A DNA stretch of 64,000 nucleotides from a virus (Duplodnaviria; Caudoviricetes), in the IMG/VR virus record IMGVR_UViG_3300031088_000782, positions 1 through 64,000 of that record, one strand, 5' to 3'. Positions 23,892 to 36,781 of the stretch are shown here, one piece after another. A program made the position numbers and the translations under genes. Position 1 is the stretch's first letter; each line of letters begins with the position of its first letter. A model generated the notes under the pieces. That model worked only from the letters and a program-made list of their open reading frames with translations, did no database searches and was not told where the DNA came from.

Positions 23892-24986
23892 ATGACAGTT
23901 ATTGAGCCTTTGGTTCCTAAGTTTGACAATATTGAGGTAAATAAAGTTGATTTGCCTTACAGAAACGAGTCTTATCTTCGTTTTTCTTATTCAGATCCTA
24001 TGTTGGAGGGATATGAAGTTACAGTTATTGCTGATTCTGTTCCAGTAGGCAGTGAATTTAAGAATGGTGATGAAGAGGGGGAGCGTTTATTAACAATTTC
24101 AGCAAGATTCCCACGTTGCATCCTTTCGGAAGTAAACACTCACAGGGTTTTTTCAAGAAATTCAGCTTCTTCTCGTGCTCGTTCAGTTAAAGCCACTATT
24201 GGTGACATTATGCGTAAGCCTTATATTCCTTTGTTCACTAAAAACAAAAAAGGTATGAGCGGAGAATTTTTAACTGCTGCTGAAAGAGAATTAGCTGTCA
24301 AGGCTTGGCTTTTGGGGCGAGACTCGGCTGTTGTTTCTGAACTTCGGCTTTTATTGGGTGATTTACTTACTCCAAGCGGAACTATCACTGAAATTGCATC
24401 AAATTATGCATCTCACATTGACCGCTATTACAAGGAAGTTTATGAAGCTGAGATTATGCCTGTTGAAGCTATTTCTGTTCATAAACAAAATGCTAATCGA
24501 GTAATTGAGCCTTATATGTGGCATGAAGCTATTGTCACTTCGTCTTATTGGGAAAATTTTGTTGAATTGCGAACAGACTTGGAAGCTGCTCAACCTGAAA
24601 TTGTTGCTTTGTGTCGTTTGATTGAAAAAGCTTTGGAAGTTTCTCGGCCTTCGCAAACTTGGTTGCACCTTCCATTTATCGAAGATTCCGAAAAACCTGA
24701 ATCCTTTGATAATTTTGCGAATATTCGTGATTTGTTGCTTCTTTCTGCAACTGAGTCAGCACAGGTTTCTTATCGTGACAAATCAAGAGCAGATAAGTCG
24801 ACTGCGACTACTCGCTTAGGTGAGCGGTTACTGAAGATGCGCCATTTGAGTCCTTTTGAGCACGTTGCTTTCTCTTCGGATGCCTACCACAATAATTCTG
24901 AGGAGATCTTACCGCGAGGAAATGTCTTGCGGAGTAATTTGGATGATAACTGGGTTCAGCTTCGTCCAATTTTGACAGCTATGTGA
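23892..24986 (+). CDS. thyX: Flavin-dependent thymidylate synthase (ThyX/Thy1), phage type
   Basis: FPRCILSEVNTHRVFSRNSASSRA, HKQNANRVIEP, HLSPFEH. Confidence 0.85.
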   Translation: MTVIEPLVPKFDNIEVNKVDLPYRNESYLRFSYSDPMLEGYEVTVIADSVPVGSEFKNGDEEGERLLTISARFPRCILSEVNTHRVFSRNSASSRARSVKATIGDIMRKPYIPLFTKNKKGMSGEFLTAAERELAVKAWLLGRDSAVVSELRLLLGDLLTPSGTITEIASNYASHIDRYYKEVYEAEIMPVEAISVHKQNANRVIEPYMWHEAIVTSSYWENFVELRTDLEAAQPEIVALCRLIEKALEVSRPSQTWLHLPFIEDSEKPESFDNFANIRDLLLLSATESAQVSYRDKSRADKSTATTRLGERLLKMRHLSPFEHVAFSSDAYHNNSEEILPRGNVLRSNLDDNWVQLRPILTAM

Positions 24987-25001
24987 AAACTGTCAAACAT
25001 G

Positions 25002-25033
25002 GAGGGGTAGAGAAAAATCATTCTCTACCCCTC
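25002..25033 (+). terminator. Intrinsic terminator
   Basis: GAGGGGTAGAGAA / TTCTCTACCCCTC. Confidence 0.7.
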
Positions 25034-25091
25034 TTTCGTGGATATTTTTCTATGAATACCTATTAATATTAATGCAAAGGTTTGATAAAGA

Positions 25092-25718
25092 ATGAGTGAA
25101 TTGCTTGAAAAGTCCCCTGTGAGACGTTTTTGGAGTAAAGACGTGATTCTGTTCTCTACTATGCTCCTATCGGCTCTATCATGCCTTGTAGCATCTCTTG
25201 TGTTGTCGATTGATGCTGTCAAGCTAGCTTCTGACCCCACCGCGAATCTCTCCTGTGATATCAACGCAATAGTAAGCTGTGGAACTGTTGCCTTATCAGA
25301 TCAAGCTCAGATTTTCGGATTTCCTAATTCTTTTCTGGGACTTATCTGTGAACCTATTGTCATTATGATTGCTGTTGCTGGCTTATCAGGCGTAAAGTTT
25401 CCAAGATGGATGCTCACAGCTGCTCAAAGTGTTTATTTCATCGGTTTCGTCTTTGCATTGTGGCTGTTCTATCAATCTGCTTTTGTTATTGAAGCTTTCT
25501 GTCCTTGGTGCTTATTAGTGACTGTTGGGACAACTTTAACCTTCTTCACACTGTTGAGATATAACATTATTCATGACAGAATTTTCCTTCCTAAAAGATT
25601 GTCAAATTTTGCTAAAACTGCTGTAAGCTTGAGGATAGATAGCGGGTTGGCTGTTATTGTTTTGATGGTTTTTGCTTTCGTTATATTCTACAATTATGGA
25701 TTCTCAATGTTTGGCTAG
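25092..25718 (+). CDS. Vitamin K epoxide reductase (VKOR) family membrane protein
   Basis: SCDINAIVSCGTV..S.QA.IFGFPN and CPWC redox motif; several TM segments. Confidence 0.9.
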   Translation: MSELLEKSPVRRFWSKDVILFSTMLLSALSCLVASLVLSIDAVKLASDPTANLSCDINAIVSCGTVALSDQAQIFGFPNSFLGLICEPIVIMIAVAGLSGVKFPRWMLTAAQSVYFIGFVFALWLFYQSAFVIEAFCPWCLLVTVGTTLTFFTLLRYNIIHDRIFLPKRLSNFAKTAVSLRIDSGLAVIVLMVFAFVIFYNYGFSMFG

Positions 25719-25807
25719 AATTTTAAAATATGTTTTTATCAAACTGTTTTTGATCTGTTTTAGAAAAGTTCATAACTAAACCTAACGAACGATAAGGTAG
25801 GATGAAC

Positions 25808-26398
25808 ATGGCGAAAACAAAGTTTCACGTAAACCCTGAAACGGGTGAGTCCGGAGAATGCAATGCATCTGTTCGTGCTTGCATTTACGGTAATAGTAAG
25901 GGCGACTATCATTATGCTACCAAAGAAGAAGCTGAGAAAGCTGGACAGAATATTCTTGCTTCAAAATATGGGACTTTTAGTAAAAAGAAAAAATCTAACA
26001 AAACTTTAAAAGCTGTTTCATCTTCTGCCGTTTCTTCGGAAAAGGTTTCTTCAAATAAATCGAAGGCAGCTAAATTTCGATCTCAAATCGAAGACATGAA
26101 TCAAGAAGAAATTCGCCAATTCGCTGACATGTCTCAATCTAATTATAATGCTATTCATAAAATTGCTGAAGATAAAATTAATGAGGATAATGCTGTTTTG
26201 TCAAGACTCGGAGAGTTGTCCGAAAAGAATGGTGCACTTATTGCCGAAAACCGTGAGATAATTATGCGAGATTACAGTATAAATCATAAATCAACTTCTG
26301 AAATTGTCAAAGGATTGGCTAACAGCAAAAACTTTTCTCCATCTAACTCTATCCTTGATCATATAAGAGATGAATATGTTAAAAATTGTTTCAAATGA
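25808..26398 (+). CDS. Protein with the same N-terminal H-C-C-H domain as the ART at 22-976
   Basis: FHVNPETGESGECNASVRACIYG...HYATKEEA. Confidence 0.8.
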   Translation: MAKTKFHVNPETGESGECNASVRACIYGNSKGDYHYATKEEAEKAGQNILASKYGTFSKKKKSNKTLKAVSSSAVSSEKVSSNKSKAAKFRSQIEDMNQEEIRQFADMSQSNYNAIHKIAEDKINEDNAVLSRLGELSEKNGALIAENREIIMRDYSINHKSTSEIVKGLANSKNFSPSNSILDHIRDEYVKNCFK

Positions 26399-26537
26399 TT
26401 CAAATGTTCGATTAAGTTGATATTCTTTTCATGCCATTAAGTTCAAGTGCTGAAGCACATGTTTTCACACTGTTTTCAGGACAAATAAGCTTCTTATTTT
26501 GAACTTAATGGTCTTTAATTTTTGATTGGAGTTTTCT

Positions 26538-26819
26538 ATGACAGGTTCAAGTTTGAATGATCTTATTGATGCTATTCGTTCTCGTTCAGCTCTTATTAAT
26601 GAAGGACTTGATGACAACAGAGCAGATTTGGGAGATCTTTTTATCAAATCAATTCGAAAAACAATGAAGGAAATTCGTCATGGAGCAAATTCTGATGATT
26701 TTTCGGAATTGGTTGTTGTCAATCTTATTATAATGGGATCGAACGAAGGTTATTCTTCCGAAGAGATGAAAGATTTTGTAATGAACCTTAAATCAGATGA
26801 TGAAGATCATCTTTTATAG
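26538..26819 (+). CDS. Hypothetical protein
   Basis: GGAG RBS before ATG 26538. Confidence 0.65.
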   Translation: MTGSSLNDLIDAIRSRSALINEGLDDNRADLGDLFIKSIRKTMKEIRHGANSDDFSELVVVNLIIMGSNEGYSSEEMKDFVMNLKSDDEDHLL

Positions 26820-26926
26820 CAATGAAAGTATGATATTTTTATGTGATTAAACAACTTTGTAAAATTTTACATAAATTTAGGACATAGTGCAAAAGTTTAA
26901 AATATACAGGCAAGAAAGGTTTCACA

Positions 26927-27523
26927 GTGTTCTCATCGACTTGGATTAACACTCACGGCTCTCAACATGAGGTCAATGAAGCGATACTGTGGGCTGATGT
27001 CGAATCATCTGGAACTACCCCTGAAGTTGACACACTTTTGGAACTTGGAGCCGTTATTTCTGATATGTCAGGGAACAGAATAAGCTCAACATGGGAGACA
27101 CTGTTTGAAATACCTGATTTGTCAAGAATTATAGCAAACTCCAGTAATGATGTTCAAAGATTACATGATAATTCAGGTTTATGGCAGGACTTGTGGAGCA
27201 AAGAGACAAAAACATATGCAGAAGCTGATTCTGATTTTTCTGACTTTATATTATCTTCTGTTCCTGAGAATACCTTGCTTTATTTCGGTGGAAATTCAAT
27301 TACTTTAGATAGGCTTTTTATTCGAATGCATATGCCTAAAACTTATTCTCTTATTTCGTATCGCTCTATTGATGTGACTTCCCTCTCTATGACGTTACAA
27401 TCAAATACTTCAATCCCTGGATTTAATAAAGGAAAAGATCATAGAGGATTGAAAGATGCTTTAGATTCATTAGAGGAATATAATTATTATTTAAATTGTT
27501 TGAAAAAGATTAATAAAAATTAG
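26927..27523 (+). CDS. orn: Oligoribonuclease (DEDDh exonuclease)
   Basis: LWADVESSG, LLELGAVISD, GNSITLDRLF, YRSIDVTSL, HRGLKD. Confidence 0.85.
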   Translation: MFSSTWINTHGSQHEVNEAILWADVESSGTTPEVDTLLELGAVISDMSGNRISSTWETLFEIPDLSRIIANSSNDVQRLHDNSGLWQDLWSKETKTYAEADSDFSDFILSSVPENTLLYFGGNSITLDRLFIRMHMPKTYSLISYRSIDVTSLSMTLQSNTSIPGFNKGKDHRGLKDALDSLEEYNYYLNCLKKINKN

Positions 27524-27590: not shown

Positions 27591-27857
27591 ATGAGTGAAG
27601 TAACAGTATATAGCAAACCTAATTGCGGAAATTGTGATAAGACATATACCCTTTTGGGGAACCTTGATGTTGATTATAATAGTGTCGACATTTCAAAAGA
27701 TAAAGAGGCTTTGAAGAAAATCAAGGCTATGGGCTTCAGAGAAGCACCAGTTGTCGTTGTTGGTAAAGATTCATGGGGTGGATTCAACGAAGATAAGATT
27801 CGTGAACATTTTGATCCTAATCACAGCAATAATGATGATGACACATGGGATTTCTAA
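27591..27857 (+). CDS. nrdH: NrdH-redoxin with C-terminal DDDTWDF extension
   Basis: VTVYSKPNCGNC, GFREAPVV, WGGF. Confidence 0.9.
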   Translation: MSEVTVYSKPNCGNCDKTYTLLGNLDVDYNSVDISKDKEALKKIKAMGFREAPVVVVGKDSWGGFNEDKIREHFDPNHSNNDDDTWDF

Positions 27858-27874: not shown

Positions 27875-27920
27875 AAAGTGAGAGACATGAGACTGTTTTG
27901 GTGCTCATGTCTCTCACTTT
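27875..27920 (+). terminator. Intrinsic terminator
   Basis: AAAGTGAGAGACATGAG / CTCATGTCTCTCACTTT plus T tract. Confidence 0.8.
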
Positions 27921-28027
27921 TTTGTTAGAATATATGATATATAATGTTGTTCTCATAAAACAAATGAGGTATAGATTAAAGACTTAGATTTAAAAGACAG
28001 AGTAGATGTTGAGGGGTAGCTTTAGTT

Positions 28028-29779
28028 ATGAAAAAAATTTACGCCAGAAAATGCGAAGTAAAAACAATTTCTAAGGATTTAGGAAGTGTTTTTATCGAAG
28101 AAAACCACACTCAAAAAGCAAGCAAAGCTTCTGCAAGTGTTTATATTGGAATCTTTTTTCAAGACAACCTTTTAGGCGTATGTATGTTTAGCAATCCCCG
28201 AACGACAAAAAAGAAAAAAGAATATTCAAGAGAACTACTTCGTTTATGCTTCAAAAAAGATACACAAGTTATTGGTGGGGCATCTAAATTGATTAAATAT
28301 TATATAAAAAATTATAACCCTGTAGATTTTTTTACATATCAGGATACAACTGGAGAGAATTCTGATGTATATGAAAGATCAGGAATGAAAATGGTAAAAG
28401 ACGGAATTAAAACAAAGAAACAATACATGGTTGCTCCTGGAAAAAACATGTCAACAGCAAATCGAAAAGAAGCTTTAAGTATGGCTTATGCTGTTAAATA
28501 TGGCCCAGACAGAATTCTTGGAACAAAAATAGGTGAAGTATTCGAAGAAAATGGAAAAAGAAAGTCCAATAGGAATATTTTCATAGAAGAATTAGGTTGG
28601 CATATAGAAGAGACAACAGGCGATTCTATATATGAGTGGACAAACCCAAATATATCTTTTTATGTTTATAAGATAACATCCAAATTAGATAATGGTTATT
28701 ATATTGGAAGAAGAAAAATAAACATAAAAAATGCAACCATACAGGAATGTATAAATGACAAGTATATGGGAAGCGGAGGTGTTAAATTTAAAAACTGGAT
28801 AAACAATATAGGAAAAGAAAATCTCGAAAAAGAAATTATGTGGATTGTAAATACAAAAAAAGAAGCAATCGCAAAAGAAGAAAAAGAAATAGGAGATTTG
28901 TATAAAACAGACGTGAATTGCAAAAATTCTCATAAAGGAGGGCTAGGCAAAAACGCTTCCAATTGGTCTGATTTATTTACAACAGGAAATTGTAGCGTTC
29001 ACGGTGAAACAAAATTTTTTGCATCTTATTGTTGCGCCTGCAGAAATCAAAAAACAGTCACTATAAAGATGTGTGACATTCATGGCGAAACAAAACACCA
29101 AGGAGGATCTTGTTCAAAATGCTCTTCTGAAAAAACTTTTCATATAAAAAAATGTATTATTCATGGGGATACAATGTTTGCAGGAAATGAATGTAGAAAG
29201 TGCTCGATTGATAAATCTTGGAGCATAATGTTTTGTGACATTCATGGGGAAACAAAACACCAATCAGGAAAATGCAAAAAATGTTCTATTGGAAAGAATA
29301 TAAATATTAAATTTTGTGACATTCATGGGGAGACTACATTCTATGGTGAATCATGTAGAAAATGCCAGGTGGATAAAAGTCTTAATGATAAAATATGTGC
29401 TATTCATGGAAAGACTAAGCATAGAGGCAATCAATGCTGCAAATGTGCATCAAAAGAAAAAGACGCAATTAAATTTTGCAAAATTCATGGTGAAACAAAA
29501 TTTCAATATAGCAAATGTATTTTATGCATAAAAGACAAAAGAGATTCATTAAAAGAATGTCCTACTCATGGGTTAGTTAAGCACAGGGGTGAAAATTGTT
29601 ATACTTGTACTATAGAAAAAGCAAACGCAATTAAATTTTGTGACATTCACGGTGAAACAAAATTTAGAGGAAATAATTGTTGTAAATGTTCTTCTGAAAA
29701 GGCCGCTCACAAAAGATTCCATGTAAAATTAAACACGAAGAAAAAAGATTGTAGGTTTTGTTTAAATTATGAAAAATGA
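28028..29779 (+). CDS. GNAT-like domain + GIY-YIG (Seg-like) endonuclease + 9 Zn-ribbon repeats
   Basis: FYVYKIT...YYIGRR...YMGSG; N-terminus aligns with the C-terminal domain of 3326-5170; 3' end overlaps the dnaG start. Confidence 0.8.
   Translation: MKKIYARKCEVKTISKDLGSVFIEENHTQKASKASASVYIGIFFQDNLLGVCMFSNPRTTKKKKEYSRELLRLCFKKDTQVIGGASKLIKYYIKNYNPVDFFTYQDTTGENSDVYERSGMKMVKDGIKTKKQYMVAPGKNMSTANRKEALSMAYAVKYGPDRILGTKIGEVFEENGKRKSNRNIFIEELGWHIEETTGDSIYEWTNPNISFYVYKITSKLDNGYYIGRRKINIKNATIQECINDKYMGSGGVKFKNWINNIGKENLEKEIMWIVNTKKEAIAKEEKEIGDLYKTDVNCKNSHKGGLGKNASNWSDLFTTGNCSVHGETKFFASYCCACRNQKTVTIKMCDIHGETKHQGGSCSKCSSEKTFHIKKCIIHGDTMFAGNECRKCSIDKSWSIMFCDIHGETKHQSGKCKKCSIGKNINIKFCDIHGETTFYGESCRKCQVDKSLNDKICAIHGKTKHRGNQCCKCASKEKDAIKFCKIHGETKFQYSKCILCIKDKRDSLKECPTHGLVKHRGENCYTCTIEKANAIKFCDIHGETKFRGNNCCKCSSEKAAHKRFHVKLNTKKKDCRFCLNYEK
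28991..29719 (+). repeat. Nine tandem 81-bp (27-aa) CxxH-x9-CxxC coding repeats
   Basis: First Cys codons at 28991 and 29639 are exactly 8 x 81 nt apart; consensus IKFCDIHGETK(F/H)xGxxCxKCxxxK. Confidence 0.9.
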
Positions 29780-31655
29780 TTTCAAAAGCTTAGTTGCTGA
29801 AGTGAAATTGGCATACAATATTGTTGATTATATTCAGCAGTCAGGGATCAAGCTTCAACAGAGAGGCATGAAGCATAAAGGCTTGTGCCCATTTCACAAC
29901 GAAAAAACGCCTTCTTTCACTGTTGATGAAAACTATCAGAATTTTAGATGTTTCGGTTGCGGAGCTGCAGGCGATCTGATGAATTTTGTTATGAGACAAG
30001 AAAGTCTTGATTTTTTTGAAGCTTTGAAGAAACTTGCTGAAGATAAAGGAATCGAAGTTGAGATTGATGGGGATAATTCTTCATCTGTTGATTACAAGTC
30101 ACTTCGTGCCTGCATAAAGACAGCTGCTAATTTCTTCGTTGCAGAGTTCAGGAAATTAGATAATGATCATGTGGCAAAGAAAGAAGTTTCGAACCGTGGA
30201 TTGTCTATCAATGGAAAAATGCTTTATGGGTATGCTCCCGAAGGCCGACAGACCTTGTTTAATTTTCTTAAAGGACAGGGGTTCAGCGAAGAAACTATTG
30301 TAATGACTGGGGTGTGCGGAAAATCAGAAAAAGGGAATTTCTATGATTTCTGGCAGGGGCGCTTGATGTTCTTTATCACAGATATCACAGGTAAGCCTAT
30401 TGGTTTTTCTGGTCGAAAACTCTATGATACTGACAATAGAGGAAAATATGTAAACTCTTCTGATACGCCTTTGTTTGATAAAAGTGCATCTCTTTATCAT
30501 GTTGACAAGGCAAAGAAAACCGCTTCTGACGAGAAAGAAATGTTTGTTGTTGAAGGTCAGTTTGATGTTTCTTCTTTTGTTGAGGCTGGTTTGAAAAACG
30601 TTGTTGCATCTTCAGGAACTGCTTTCACAGAAAAACAAGGGATGATGATTCGCCGTCTTGTTTCTGAGAGCGGACGAATTGTGTTTGCGTTTGACGGTGA
30701 CAGTGCTGGTGTTGCAGCTGCTGTTAAAGTTTTCAAAAACGTTCCTGGTATCCATGATCAATCTTATGTTGTGTCTTTTCCTGATGATCAAGACCCCTGC
30801 GACTACAGATTAGAAAATGGTTCAGAAGAACTTGTAGAATATGTGAAAAACAATGCAAAGCCGATGATTGAGTTTATTTTGGAAGCGACTGCTGATGATT
30901 ATGATCTTGATTCTACTCTTGGTAGGTCTCGTTATGTTGATGCTGCATGTAGGGTTCTCAAAACAATTTCAAGTGCATCTCTTCGTGAAGTCTTTTTGAA
31001 GAAAGTTTCTTTGGATTCTTTCACTTCTGTTGAAGCTGTTCGTGAAGTTCTCGTAAAAGCCGATCCCATTGAAACTTATTCATCTTTTTCTGGTAACAAT
31101 GAGGATAAAGAACATAGAGAAAGACCTGATTTGGATGAGGGATCTGTTATTGATCAAGATGAGATTTTAGTTAAGATTAAAAAGGATTCAACATATAATG
31201 TCACTGCCCGTTTTATTTCTCTTTGTTTTATGCAGAAGAAGTTTATTCCTTATCTGATTAAGGCTCAAAGTATTATTCCATCTGAAATGTCTTCTATTGT
31301 TGATGACTTGAAAGAATTGAATTACACTGAGACTTTGGTTCCTGAACAGTTCCAATTGTCAAAAGTTGTTTCAGCTTTGTTCAATGCTAATTTCTTTCCG
31401 CTTGCACATATGATGACTTTTGCAGATCAGAAAGATCAATTCATTTATCTTCGAAATTATTTGTATAAGAGAGAGATGAGTGCTAATAAGAATCGCATTC
31501 GTTCAAAAATTTCAAGAATTATTGAACAATCTAATAATACTGATGTTGATTTCTTGGAGAGGGCTTTAATGAAAGAAGAACAGGAGTTGCAGAAACTCAA
31601 ATCATCACATCATGAAAACACAGATAGTTCAGAGAGTGAGATTGTTGAACAATAG
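29769..31655 (+). CDS. dnaG: DNA primase
   Basis: CHC2 Zn finger CPFH..KTPSF..CFGC; GKYVNS; TOPRIM VEGQFD and FDGD. Confidence 0.96.
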   Translation: MKNDFKSLVAEVKLAYNIVDYIQQSGIKLQQRGMKHKGLCPFHNEKTPSFTVDENYQNFRCFGCGAAGDLMNFVMRQESLDFFEALKKLAEDKGIEVEIDGDNSSSVDYKSLRACIKTAANFFVAEFRKLDNDHVAKKEVSNRGLSINGKMLYGYAPEGRQTLFNFLKGQGFSEETIVMTGVCGKSEKGNFYDFWQGRLMFFITDITGKPIGFSGRKLYDTDNRGKYVNSSDTPLFDKSASLYHVDKAKKTASDEKEMFVVEGQFDVSSFVEAGLKNVVASSGTAFTEKQGMMIRRLVSESGRIVFAFDGDSAGVAAAVKVFKNVPGIHDQSYVVSFPDDQDPCDYRLENGSEELVEYVKNNAKPMIEFILEATADDYDLDSTLGRSRYVDAACRVLKTISSASLREVFLKKVSLDSFTSVEAVREVLVKADPIETYSSFSGNNEDKEHRERPDLDEGSVIDQDEILVKIKKDSTYNVTARFISLCFMQKKFIPYLIKAQSIIPSEMSSIVDDLKELNYTETLVPEQFQLSKVVSALFNANFFPLAHMMTFADQKDQFIYLRNYLYKREMSANKNRIRSKISRIIEQSNNTDVDFLERALMKEEQELQKLKSSHHENTDSSESEIVEQ

Positions 31656-34260: not shown

Positions 34261-34360
34261 TGCTATATGAGATATTGATATAGGCACAGCTGAAATGTTA
34301 GATGCTGTGTCTATATTTCTTTAATCGAACATATAGCAAAAGAGTTTGGTGGTTTGTGTA

Positions 34361-36781
34361 ATGTTATTTCTTTCTTCTGAAGATAAGGATGATGACAACA
34401 ATAAAGGGTTTGTCGGACTCCTTGTTGTGCTGTCAATAATCTTTCTCCCCGCTTTCATTCTCGGATGGGGTTATTATAGTTTGATTCGGTTTTTCAAACA
34501 GCGTTTTTCCGTAATAGCTACTGTTGTCCTCTTTGTTGATTTGATTGCTGTGCTCTACGGATTCTTGTCTCATGCAGTAGAAAGAGCTTTAGGTGTTTTT
34601 GCCAATCTTTTCCAAATTCAAAATTTATGGACTGATTTGATACCTTTTGCTATTGTTTTCAATATTATTTTAGGTGGATTTTTTGGATTATTGCTAGTGT
34701 TTATACAAATACAGCAGATTAAAGCTAGCCCTTATAAACTTAAATTTAAGGGAACATGGCTTTATGAATTCAAGTTTAGAAGAACACCTTTACAATATTT
34801 CCGAAAGAAAAAAATTATTGAAGGTTTAAAAGAAGGTAAATATTCATCACCTGAAAAAGCACCACTAGGATTAGATGAAAACAATGGCGATGTTGTTGCA
34901 TCAATGTATGGTTCAGAGAGTGGTAAGCCTACGTTGATCTCAGGAGCAGCAGGTTCAGGAAAAACTATTACTATGCTTTCAATGATTCACAATAATATTA
35001 AAAATGGGAAACCCTCTGTTGTGATTGATTTCAAGCGAAGTCCAGAACTTTCTTCAAAACTTGCGTCTTGGGCAAAAGAAAACAACAGAAAATTTTATCA
35101 TTTTGTGAACGGAGACCCTGATAGATATGATGTTAAAGATTCTCCTGGTCAAGCTTGTTATGACGCTTTGATTAACGGTGATGCATCTAAGGCAGACATG
35201 GTTTTGGGAATGCGAGAATATGATGTTGCGGCTGAAGTCTATAAATCTAGTATGCGTCAGTTACTACAAGTTCTTTTCTCTATGCTGAAGTATGCAGATA
35301 AAAGTAAGGCTCCAAATGTTGATTGGGATCATGGTGAACTTTATCAAGTTGCCTCTTCAATCACTGGTGGTAATTTTACGGATCTTGTTGGGGCTTGTGA
35401 AGGAACAATTATTCAAGCTAGTGCTGAGGAAGTTGAGATTGGGTTACGTAGCAGAACTTCTAGTTTGCATAAGGCTATGGAGGAACTGCGAGGTCAGATG
35501 AGAACTATCATTTCGTCCGAGTATGGGCGTTGGTTAAAAACTGAAAAAGGCGGAAGGAATATTGACCTTTATAAACTTACGTCTGAATCAGATAGTGATA
35601 GCGTTATTCTATTCTCTCTTAACTCTGATTCTGAGAAAGACTTTTCAAAATATTTGGGATCTTTAATCCTAGCAGATTTGAGTGCAGTATCTGCTAAGCG
35701 CAGAAATAATGGCATTAAGAATCAAATAAGTGTTTATGTTGATGAGTTCCAAGCTGTTCCCCCTACAGCCGTTACAAGCCTTTTGGAAAAATCTCGTGAA
35801 TCCAAAATGGGCATGACTCTTTCCAGTCAGTCTTATGAACAGATTGTTGCAGCTTCTGATAACAATGGTGAAGCTTATTTGATCAGTATTATGGATACTT
35901 GTTCTAACTTCATAGTCCATAACGGTGCTACTGAAAAGTCTGCTGTAAGATTGGCTGAAATTATTGGTAAAGATTTCGAAACTGTTTATTCAGCTTCTAA
36001 TCAGAATGATGGTTTCTTATTCTCTATCAATTGGTTTAATAAGAGGAATCAGATTGTGAAAACAGACGAAGAGGAAAGATGGATCGTACATCCTAAAGAA
36101 TTCATGTCTTTGTCTTCTCCAAGTGAAAATAATGGTTATAAATCTACTGCTGTTATCATTAACAAATCACCTGATGATCCTTTGTTTAAAAATAACGCAG
36201 GCGGTGCTGTTGCTAGACATGTTTGGATGATTCCTAATCAAGAAGTAATCAATGATTATTATATTCCTAAATTAGCTTCTGATGACAGTTACGATGAAAC
36301 CGACCTTCCGCCAGCTCTAGTTGAACTTACTGGTAAAGGGCATAATTCTATTCTTGAAGAACAGGAAGCTCCAAGAGATTATCTTTCTGAAAGACTTGAT
36401 GGACATCGCTCAACAGATTCTATTGTTGAAGAATACGATTATTCAGGTATGGAAGATGAAGATCTTGACGGATCTTTTGGATTTGAAACTATTGAAGAAG
36501 ATGAGGATGACAGCTTCAAAGATGTTCAAAGCATAGATTATCGGAAGGTCATGAATCAAAGAAAAACAAACAATGATGATCTTTTTGAATCTGCTCGACC
36601 AAAAACGAGAAGATCAGCCATTGAATCTGCTTCTTTTGAAAGCTTATTCAATTCAGAGGCAACTCCTGATTTGGTGAGACGTAAAGAATCACCAAAGAGC
36701 AGACTACCCAAAAAACCAGACCCAATTGAGGAAGACCTTTATGAAGAGGAAGCTCTGCCCGATATAGAGGAACTTATGTGA
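34361..36781 (+). CDS. Type IV coupling protein (VirD4/TraD-like)
   Basis: N-terminal TMs, Walker A GAAGSGKT, Walker B YVDEF, EKSRESKMGMTLSSQS; acidic tail. Confidence 0.88.
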   Translation: MLFLSSEDKDDDNNKGFVGLLVVLSIIFLPAFILGWGYYSLIRFFKQRFSVIATVVLFVDLIAVLYGFLSHAVERALGVFANLFQIQNLWTDLIPFAIVFNIILGGFFGLLLVFIQIQQIKASPYKLKFKGTWLYEFKFRRTPLQYFRKKKIIEGLKEGKYSSPEKAPLGLDENNGDVVASMYGSESGKPTLISGAAGSGKTITMLSMIHNNIKNGKPSVVIDFKRSPELSSKLASWAKENNRKFYHFVNGDPDRYDVKDSPGQACYDALINGDASKADMVLGMREYDVAAEVYKSSMRQLLQVLFSMLKYADKSKAPNVDWDHGELYQVASSITGGNFTDLVGACEGTIIQASAEEVEIGLRSRTSSLHKAMEELRGQMRTIISSEYGRWLKTEKGGRNIDLYKLTSESDSDSVILFSLNSDSEKDFSKYLGSLILADLSAVSAKRRNNGIKNQISVYVDEFQAVPPTAVTSLLEKSRESKMGMTLSSQSYEQIVAASDNNGEAYLISIMDTCSNFIVHNGATEKSAVRLAEIIGKDFETVYSASNQNDGFLFSINWFNKRNQIVKTDEEERWIVHPKEFMSLSSPSENNGYKSTAVIINKSPDDPLFKNNAGGAVARHVWMIPNQEVINDYYIPKLASDDSYDETDLPPALVELTGKGHNSILEEQEAPRDYLSERLDGHRSTDSIVEEYDYSGMEDEDLDGSFGFETIEEDEDDSFKDVQSIDYRKVMNQRKTNNDDLFESARPKTRRSAIESASFESLFNSEATPDLVRRKESPKSRLPKKPDPIEEDLYEEEALPDIEELM

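Follow-up and report, generated by a model that had tools for sequence, protein, structure and literature searches.

Most T5orf172 (GIY-YIG-like) homing endonucleases of ICP1 and other phages carry at least one zinc finger of the CapR, DUF723 or DUF4379/DUF4397 type (both of the last two numbers are in print), and these fingers are predicted DNA-binding domains (Barth, Nguyen & Seed 2023; PMC10448857). The same paper cites experiments that identified the CapR DNA-binding domain as a zinc finger and proposes repeat-mediated recombination as a route to new specificity. Here, we analyzed a gene of comparable design at positions 28028..29779 (+ strand) of a stretch of viral DNA, namely positions 1 to 64,000 of the IMG/VR record IMGVR_UViG_3300031088_000782. 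We call these 64,000 nucleotides (nt) the window, and all positions below are positions of the window. The record is an element of 309,534 bp that was cut from a contig of 681,645 bp and is classed as a provirus. The open reading frame (ORF) is complete and encodes P0001, a protein of 583 amino acids (aa) that consists of a Mom-like domain, a GIY-YIG nuclease domain, an array of nine predicted zinc fingers and a cap (AlphaFold2, mean predicted local distance difference test [pLDDT] score of 93.3). We consider it fairly probable that P0001 is a homing-type GIY-YIG endonuclease aimed by nine individually specialized treble-clef-like zinc fingers. Homing endonucleases with repeated zinc fingers are already known, and those fingers are long, few and poorly understood; the 27-aa finger of P0001 and its exact packing appear to be undescribed.

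P0001 and the T5orf172 systems, which are the closest published ones, are alike in joining a GIY-YIG-type nuclease to tandem zinc modules taken as DNA binding, in being free-standing genes beside essential genes, and in a modular, repetitive build of the kind held to make retargeting faster. The C-H-C-C order of the 27-aa unit is common to the DUF723 type, and treble-clef DUF4379 domains follow the array in two relatives of P0001 (P0024 and P0098) and precede two units in a third (P0124). However, the CapR, DUF723 and DUF4379 modules have Pfam models of 56-60 positions, hold C-x2-H and C-x2-C about 18-19 residues apart (as in P0121, described below) and keep no exact period, whereas the 27-aa unit, C-x2-H-x9-C-x2-C, is set head to tail without linkers in 5-15 copies. 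Neither PF05265 nor PF14311 matched P0001 or its array at E values (E) up to 10, and an hhalign comparison of 400 array units with only 4 DUF723 units, a set too small to be informative, gave a probability of 4%. A Foldseek search of BFVD returned weak local matches to CapR-homology, T5orf172 and Hef-like proteins, those to CapR-homology proteins having E of 0.01-0.05 and template modeling (TM) scores below 0.2.

SegA-G, I-TevI and I-BmoI resemble P0001 in having a monomeric GIY-YIG domain 5' of the DNA-binding domain and a gene that lies between nucleotide-metabolism or replication genes. Their DNA-binding domains are of the NUMOD, helix-turn-helix or minor-groove helix kinds, with one zinc finger in I-TevI, and to our knowledge long zinc-finger arrays and Mom-like domains are absent from all of them. 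Hef and the Hef-like endonucleases (phage U5; Campylobacter, Pseudomonas and Vibrio phages) have in common with P0001 a Mom-like GNAT-fold domain and CHCC modules, which in them are of the DUF723 type. They differ from it in domain order (the Vsr-like nuclease comes after the zinc modules and before the Mom-like domain), in the fold of the nuclease, and in modules that are longer and fewer. A Hef-like gene of this kind, P0121 (3326-5254, - strand; 642 aa), is present in the window. It encodes four or five DUF723-type C-x2-H...GC-x2-C modules (DUF723, E = 5.8e-9), a Vsr-like nuclease with the motif 'FNGLYWH' and, at the C terminus, a Mom-like domain (phrog_559, E = 3e-113). The Mom-like domain therefore occurs on two different nuclease chassis within one window.

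Outside the homing endonucleases, C2H2 arrays and engineered zinc-finger nucleases, including I-TevI-zinc-finger fusions, are like P0001 in their beta-beta-alpha module of about 27-28 aa, their long tandem arrays and the nuclease joined to them. The order of ligands differs, with C,C and then H,H in the C2H2 finger and a C,H hairpin plus C,C at the helix N terminus in P0001. P0001 also lacks the TGEKP-type linker of C2H2 proteins, its linker being a strand of the next finger, and there is no sequence relationship. The plant EFFECTOR OF TRANSCRIPTION (ET/HRT) factors have, after a GIY-YIG domain, Cys/His repeats that vary in number and are described as binding zinc and DNA (PMC6585611). Compared by description only, these factors share the order of GIY-YIG and then zinc repeats with P0001 and differ from it as plant nuclear regulators. 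The Cys spacing of the ET repeat is different from that of the 27-aa unit.

The 27-residue unit and its family

The array consists of nine tandem C-x2-H-G-x8-C-x2-C modules at aa 322-564 (28991..29719, + strand), each 27 aa or 81 nt long and without indels. The C..HG motifs start at aa 322, 349, 376, 403, 430, 457, 484, 511 and 538, that is, at window position 28991 + 81*i, and all eight spacings (8/8) are 27 aa. An earlier note, made from the letters of the window, had claimed this exact period, and the claim held. It had also listed the residues before the second CxxC of each unit, and we read the same ones (FFASY, HQGGS, FAGNE, HQSGK, FYGES, HRGNQ, FQYSK, HRGEN and FRGNN). Likewise, the HxxxH..CxxC cap that it had placed at the end of the array is there, as H561-x3-H565-x9-C575-x2-C578. 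This C-terminal cap (29708..29776, + strand) is a probable tenth zinc site closing the array, with a predicted helix, loop and helix in the AlphaFold2 model, and it recurs in the family, where HxxxH...CxxC was found in 54 of 193 members and H...CxxC in 70 of 193. In six members that form a branch of an 11-finger group (P0038, P0040, P0049, P0085, P0088 and P0090), the zinc cap is swapped for a conserved '...RFGISKHH(V/L)KK...' tail, which resembles a small helix-turn-helix.

Numbered from its first cysteine, the unit has C1, H4, G5, C14 and C17 as invariant residues. In one relative, P0123, H4 is swapped for Cys in alternate units, and this exchange supports H4 as a metal ligand. P0123 is a metagenomic protein of 316 aa in which a GIY-YIG domain is followed by seven units of strictly alternating C-x2-C and C-x2-H types; its source name, 'ribosomal protein L33', is evidently a misannotation. 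A register that groups C14 and C17 with C1 and H4 of the next unit was rejected because arrays open with C..HG and close with C..C, and only the register used here leaves no orphan half-sites. At the DNA level, the units of P0001 are only 46-73% identical, and Tandem Repeats Finder reported nothing for the array DNA, from which we conclude that the repeat is old.

AlphaFold2 was run twice, on the full-length protein and on residues 310-583 (pLDDT of 94.3 for the latter), and both models agree on the unit as assigned by DSSP. One strand is made of positions 23-27 of one unit and C1 of the next; it leads into the C1-x2-H4 knuckle, a second strand (positions 5-10), a turn (11-12) and a helix (15-22) that has C14-x2-C17 at its start. 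The unit is therefore predicted to be a treble-clef-like beta-beta-alpha finger, neither a two-hairpin zinc ribbon nor a C2H2 finger, and the models do not agree with the description of the units as zinc ribbons in the earlier note. As for the C2H2 finger, the ligands are C1 and H4 in the knuckle and C14 and C17 at the helix N terminus, and no Pfam zf-C2H2 match was obtained. H9 as a zinc ligand, or a RING-like cross-brace, was considered and rejected, since one-third of the units have Phe at position 9 and C1, H4, C14 and C17 already make a full site. Despite the pLDDT of 94, the predicted TM (pTM) scores were only 0.57-0.60, so that the relative orientation of the units is uncertain.

Because a single 27-aa unit is too small for fold searches, we used the whole array. 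Foldseek found no match in the PDB at E up to 0.001, the best nonsignificant ones being C2H2 proteins on DNA (ZFP568, E = 0.18; ZFP91, E = 0.30). An exhaustive VIA search returned only CTCF (Z = 2.0), and the best score in the ESM Atlas, 0.80, was noise. No Pfam model matched the array even at E up to 10, and sequence searches of the PDB gave no match for the single protein and no significant match for the family profile. Positions 337-376 of the profile of family alignment A1 had a local, nonsignificant match (E of 0.18-0.2) to the 'C.VHGKTGH...C..C' of the MDM2 RING; this resemblance is probably a convergence of zinc-knuckle motifs.

In a word-indexed search, 236 proteins matched with E of 0.001 or less. 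Among the 120 matches listed, there were 6-15 units per protein, the spacing was nearly always 27, and almost none of the proteins was named. That the spacing is kept across the listed homologues implies that the periodicity is a family trait and not chance. An exhaustive phmmer search of 1.84 billion cluster representatives yielded 130 clusters, some with as few as 5 regular units. Cellular genomes gave one match in 185,579 species genomes (GTDB), on an 8-kb contig of a metagenome-assembled genome; the family is rare in IMG/VR, and several members lie on contigs of 480-830 kb. As judged by these sequence searches, the array defines a small, unnamed, metagenome-only family with 5-15 fingers. 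We also scanned for a degenerate DNA pattern of the array. About 7 of the 67 matches in the metagenome collection were genuine members, and most of the 29 matches in IMG/VR were frames of 27-nt tandem repeats that do not belong to the family. The latter (L087, L089, L094, L102-L106 and others) are GC-rich 27-nt repeats that read 'C..HG' every 9 residues in up to 26 copies, which makes them a different tandem repeat and not zinc fingers.

The commonest architecture in the family is a Mom-like domain, a GIY-YIG domain and the array, and another is a GIY-YIG domain and the array in proteins of 270-390 aa; some members have mixed CxxC/CxxH units. In four proteins (P0216, P0218, P0220 and P0198), the units are N terminal to a DUF559/Vsr-like nuclease. 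These four mix C-x2-C and C-x2-H units of 27-28 aa, both N terminally and before the C-terminal nuclease, and their middle region is rich in Cys as well. In the family, the array was never found on its own, and none of the proteins was longer than 1021 aa. Our search of the literature found no paper describing the 27-aa unit. On these searches, the 27-aa finger is an undescribed kind of predicted zinc module.

Signatures of a probable targeting domain

We determined the charge of the units and the distribution of charged residues along them. The array is basic, with about +2 per unit and an isoelectric point of about 9 (P0001, +21 over nine units). Lys or Arg is found in 47-64% of units at positions 8, 16, 21 and 26. 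Asp and Glu reach 22-46% at positions 2, 6, 12, 20 and 27 and at most 3% at positions 7-11, 13, 15, 16, 18, 19, 22 and 23, a distribution that indicates that one face of each finger avoids negative charge.

The arrays of orthologues align finger by finger, as in an 11-finger group of 11 proteins, and we could therefore compare orthologous fingers with the fingers of one protein. Residue identity at position 10 was 0.72 between orthologous fingers and 0.15 between the fingers of one protein. The corresponding values were 0.62 and 0.09 at position 15, 0.54 and 0.12 at position 18, 0.52 and 0.17 at position 19, 0.57 and 0.13 at position 22, and 0.56 and 0.19 at position 23. Drift was seen in both comparisons at positions 2, 6, 12, 20 and 27. 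In the predicted fold, positions 15, 18, 19 and 22 line up as a single stripe along the helix, position 10 is the last residue of strand 2, and the next strand begins with position 23. Each of the nine fingers of P0001 has its own set of residues at the identity positions. A few repeat-specific positions (10, 15, 18, 19, 22 and 23) hence vary on a constant scaffold, which is the pattern looked for in modular DNA readers with one repeat per subsite, such as C2H2 arrays and transcription activator-like effectors (TALEs). The earlier note had suggested that the repeat number and a five-residue tip before the second CxxC may set the target. Position 10 and, weakly, position 13 of that tip are retained by our data, whereas position 11 is a conserved Gly, position 12 drifts, and most of the signal is at positions 15, 18, 19, 22 and 23.

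Next, the arrays were compared with the N-terminal 320 residues of the same proteins. When these residues were 60-65% identical, 52 of 86 pairs had an array identity below 0.45, which is the background of unrelated fingers, and 10 of 86 had colinear arrays (at least 0.55). Above 70% N-terminal identity, all of the pairs (9/9) were colinear. The arrays therefore change, by divergence or by replacement, without being tied to the nuclease part. Taken together, the charge, the finger identity, this independence and the occurrence with two nuclease folds are what would be expected of a targeting domain whose fingers each have a separate task. The zinc-finger-nuclease-like architecture put forward in the earlier note is upheld to the extent that a nuclease is joined to a periodic zinc array with the traits expected of a DNA-targeting domain. 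A discrete code like that of TALEs is not visible, and the 1023 distinct five-residue combinations among 1200 units mean that no simple code can be seen.

The earlier note had also made much of position 9, which runs F,H,F,H,F,H,F,H,F along the array of P0001, and had derived from it a 54-aa super-repeat. The alternation is present in P0001 but is explained by chance. Across the family, position 9 is His in about 0.61 and Phe in about 0.34 of units, and neighboring units are independent there (unlike fraction of 0.459 versus 0.461 expected). Perfect alternation over nine units has a chance of 0.0017 per protein; P0001 was the only perfect alternator among the 172 proteins with at least seven units, and about 0.3 were expected. 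In P0014, whose array is the nearest to being colinear with that of P0001, position 9 reads FHFFFFFHF. Units of the same parity were no more alike than units of different parity (permutation P = 0.79), and the super-repeat was thus not borne out. Covariation links position 9 to positions 26, 25 and 23 of the unit before it (Cramer's V of 0.40, 0.29 and 0.27), and since these form the strand paired with position 9, the latter looks like a packing residue. The alternation in P0123, unlike that of Phe and His in P0001, is a real two-unit alternation.

Nuclease part and gene setting

The fusion of the array to a GIY-YIG nuclease, as given in the earlier note, was supported, with the GIY-YIG domain ahead of the array, and an N-terminal domain of about 207 aa had been overlooked. 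This Mom-like GNAT-fold domain, aa 1 to about 207 (28028..28648, + strand), was detected with Pfam, phrog, Foldseek, VIA and hhalign. Pfam Mom (PF25680) matched P0001 with E of 5.8e-6 and 26.5 bits, just under the cutoff of 27.1, and matched 33 of the 70 aligned members. The N terminus of P0001 also matched families of Hef-like homing endonucleases (phrog_3339, E = 1.7e-30; phrog_559, E = 2e-24), in which the Mom-like domain is the C-terminal part. For the fold modeled by AlphaFold2, the best Foldseek match was phage Mu Mom (8bv8_A; E = 5e-7), and GNAT acetyltransferases came next. With VIA, model residues 6-207 aligned with the same structure with Z of 14.4 and a root mean square deviation of 2.6 Å over 133 aligned residues, and hhalign of A1 against Mu Mom gave E of 9.5e-4. 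That hhalign alignment puts S124, the catalytic serine of Mom that is mutated in 8bv8, inside an insertion and not on a conserved residue of the family profile; the family-invariant S86 (GGASK) is paired with Mom L131.

The SegE-type GIY-YIG nuclease domain, aa ~208-305 (28649..28942, + strand), was assigned by a Pfam SegE_GIY-YIG match below the cutoff (E = 0.0018), by invariant columns and by its predicted fold. Residues Y212, Y214, Y225, G227, Y246, G248, S249, G250, E284 and N300 are invariant in the 70 sequences of A1. Y212 and Y214 lie in 'YVYKI' and Y225 and G227 in 'YYIG', which are the GIY and YIG motifs, and E284 and N300 are 16 residues apart. In the AlphaFold2 model, the order of elements is beta-beta-alpha-alpha-beta-alpha. 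When Pfam GIY-YIG models were run against the 70 aligned members at E up to 0.01, PF19835 matched 8/70 and PF01541 matched 2/70.

The endonuclease gene is wedged between conserved genes, in the order nrdH-like gene, endonuclease gene, dnaG. The nrdH-like gene (27591-27857) directly precedes a perfect 17-bp hairpin (27875..27920, + strand; arms 27875-27891 and 27904-27920, 100% complementary) followed by a T run, which is a likely intrinsic terminator separating nrdH from the endonuclease gene; a simple terminator scan of the window did not have this hairpin in its output. From reading the sequence, we propose TGATATATAAT (27935..27945, + strand), 83 nt 5' of the start of the endonuclease ORF, as an extended -10-like promoter element, which a consensus promoter scan did not report. 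The DnaG-type primase gene (29769..31655, + strand) has its ATG within the last codons of the endonuclease gene, with an overlap of 11 nt. Two paralogues encoding 6 and 10-11 fingers are located between gyrB and gyrA in the same element, about 190 kb away, so that the element holds three paralogues in all. In other assemblies, two relatives are beside nrdI (L086 and L153), one is 2 kb from recA (L007), and two are among FtsK-like and TcpE conjugation genes (L119 and L177). Free-standing homing endonucleases classically occupy sites next to genes for nucleotide metabolism and replication, and by its gene order the P0001 locus is typical of such sites.

The endonuclease gene and dnaG both start with ATGAAAAA. 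Around the two start codons and in the same register, there is an imperfect 24-nt direct repeat (18/24; 28012-28035 and 29753-29776). This repeat may be an insertion footprint or merely a pair of similar ribosome-binding regions, and we judged it too weak to be called a footprint, since both copies are regions of ribosome-binding site plus ATGAAAAA in AT-rich DNA. Elsewhere in the window, 23892-27523 and 34346-36781 contain nucleotide-metabolism and redox genes (a weak ThyX-like match, VKOR, an RNase T-like exonuclease and NrdH) plus a TraG/VirD4-like coupling protein. This gene content suggests an element that combines phage-like with conjugative functions. A megablast search with 7 kb against phages gave no match, and a primase query of viral contigs found no close relative of the element.

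Competing explanations and meaning

In the reading that we favor, P0001 would be a free-standing homing-type endonuclease on a giant mobile element. Its SegE-type GIY-YIG domain would do the cutting, and the nine-finger chain with its zinc cap would be the targeting domain, binding DNA with sequence specificity. Each finger would bind one zinc through C1, H4, C14 and C17 and present a patch to which strand 2 contributes its end (positions 10 and 13) and the helix its stripe (positions 15, 18, 19 and 22), and Lys or Arg at positions 8, 16, 21 and 26 would hold the DNA backbone. With a conserved patch of its own on each finger, the nine could read one long asymmetric site, probably one within the nrdH-dnaG allele without the endonuclease gene. 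As with the DNA-binding domain of I-TevI, the bound array would then bring the monomeric nuclease tethered to it into place, and the Mom-like domain may be an accessory part common to Hef-like endonucleases. More tentatively, we propose that the 27-aa CHCC finger may be a compact programmable DNA-reading module. If so, each finger would read a fixed few base pairs through positions 10, 13, 15, 18, 19 and 22, 5-15 fingers would spell long sites, and retargeting would occur by changing or exchanging fingers. This stronger proposal is possible but less likely than not.

Several results weigh against a targeted homing endonuclease. P0001 itself scores 19 bits against SegE_GIY-YIG (PF19835), below the cutoff of 25, which the homologue P0070 passes with 32.3 bits, and the catalytic Arg of the GIY-YIG domain was not located. 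The gene neighborhoods of relatives are mixed, some being among conjugation genes (FtsK-like and TcpE). Within the finger, the identity positions covary strongly (mutual information of 0.55 for positions 10 and 15 and 0.46 for positions 15 and 18 versus a null of about 0.13), and hydrophobic residues are common at positions 15 and 18. Given this covariation and hydrophobicity, part of the identity signal could be packing within or between units and not base reading. The array might then bind DNA as a basic, semirigid rod that holds the backbone or recognizes DNA shape, or that sets the distance to the cut. Specificity would be due to the cap, to a small number of fingers or to the motif that the nuclease prefers to cleave, and the unit-specific residues would serve mainly in packing. 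The lack of a small set of unit types among those 1200 units, the uncertain orientation of units that goes with the low pTM score, and the zinc finger of I-TevI, which belongs to a linker that regulates catalysis and does not bind DNA (PMC10448857), are all consistent with such a rod. However, packing alone fails to explain why acidic residues are excluded from exactly the identity positions, and it fails to explain the replacement of whole arrays at 60-65% identity of the nuclease part. We regard the rod as doubtful, and finger-by-finger targeting by P0001 as the better account of these two results.

A different question is what the protein does for the element that carries it. P0001 could be a domesticated weapon or regulator of the giant element, acting as a nuclease against competitors or host DNA or as a repressor. 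DNA-binding domains of homing endonucleases have been domesticated as CapR and Odn (PMC10448857), some relatives of P0001 sit among conjugation genes and away from conserved replication genes, the endonuclease gene is translationally coupled to dnaG, and the element keeps three paralogues. Against this, the nrdH/dnaG, gyrB/gyrA, nrdI and recA sites are classical homing niches and the catalytic-type residues are invariant, and we judge domestication to be unlikely. Unlikelier still, and by a clear step, is an array that binds RNA, single-stranded DNA or a protein partner or that is a structural zinc scaffold. Treble-clef and ribbon modules do have many functions, and no structural match to a DNA complex rose above noise (ZFP568, E = 0.18; CTCF, Z = 2.0). 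However, the array was found solely in fusion with DNA nucleases, which are of two folds; it is basic and has a face free of acidic residues, and it sits where GIY-YIG homing endonucleases have their DNA-binding domain. A homing-type endonuclease targeted by its fingers is thus the explanation of P0001 that we retain.

In this family, a small monomeric nuclease carries up to 15 minimal fingers of 27 residues in exactly periodic packing, and the comparative data point to about six residues per finger that carry its identity. If these residues read DNA, the family would offer a new natural scaffold for long sites, smaller per unit than the TALE repeat and joined to a monomeric nuclease, as well as a tractable system for learning how selfish nucleases retarget; it would also be a possible prokaryotic analogue of the plant ET factors. 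Should the finger prove to be a programmable module, the family would be the counterpart in prokaryotes of zinc-finger nucleases, and its code could be deciphered. If the residues do not read DNA, the array would still be an undescribed zinc-repeat architecture with a confidently predicted fold that has no solved counterpart.

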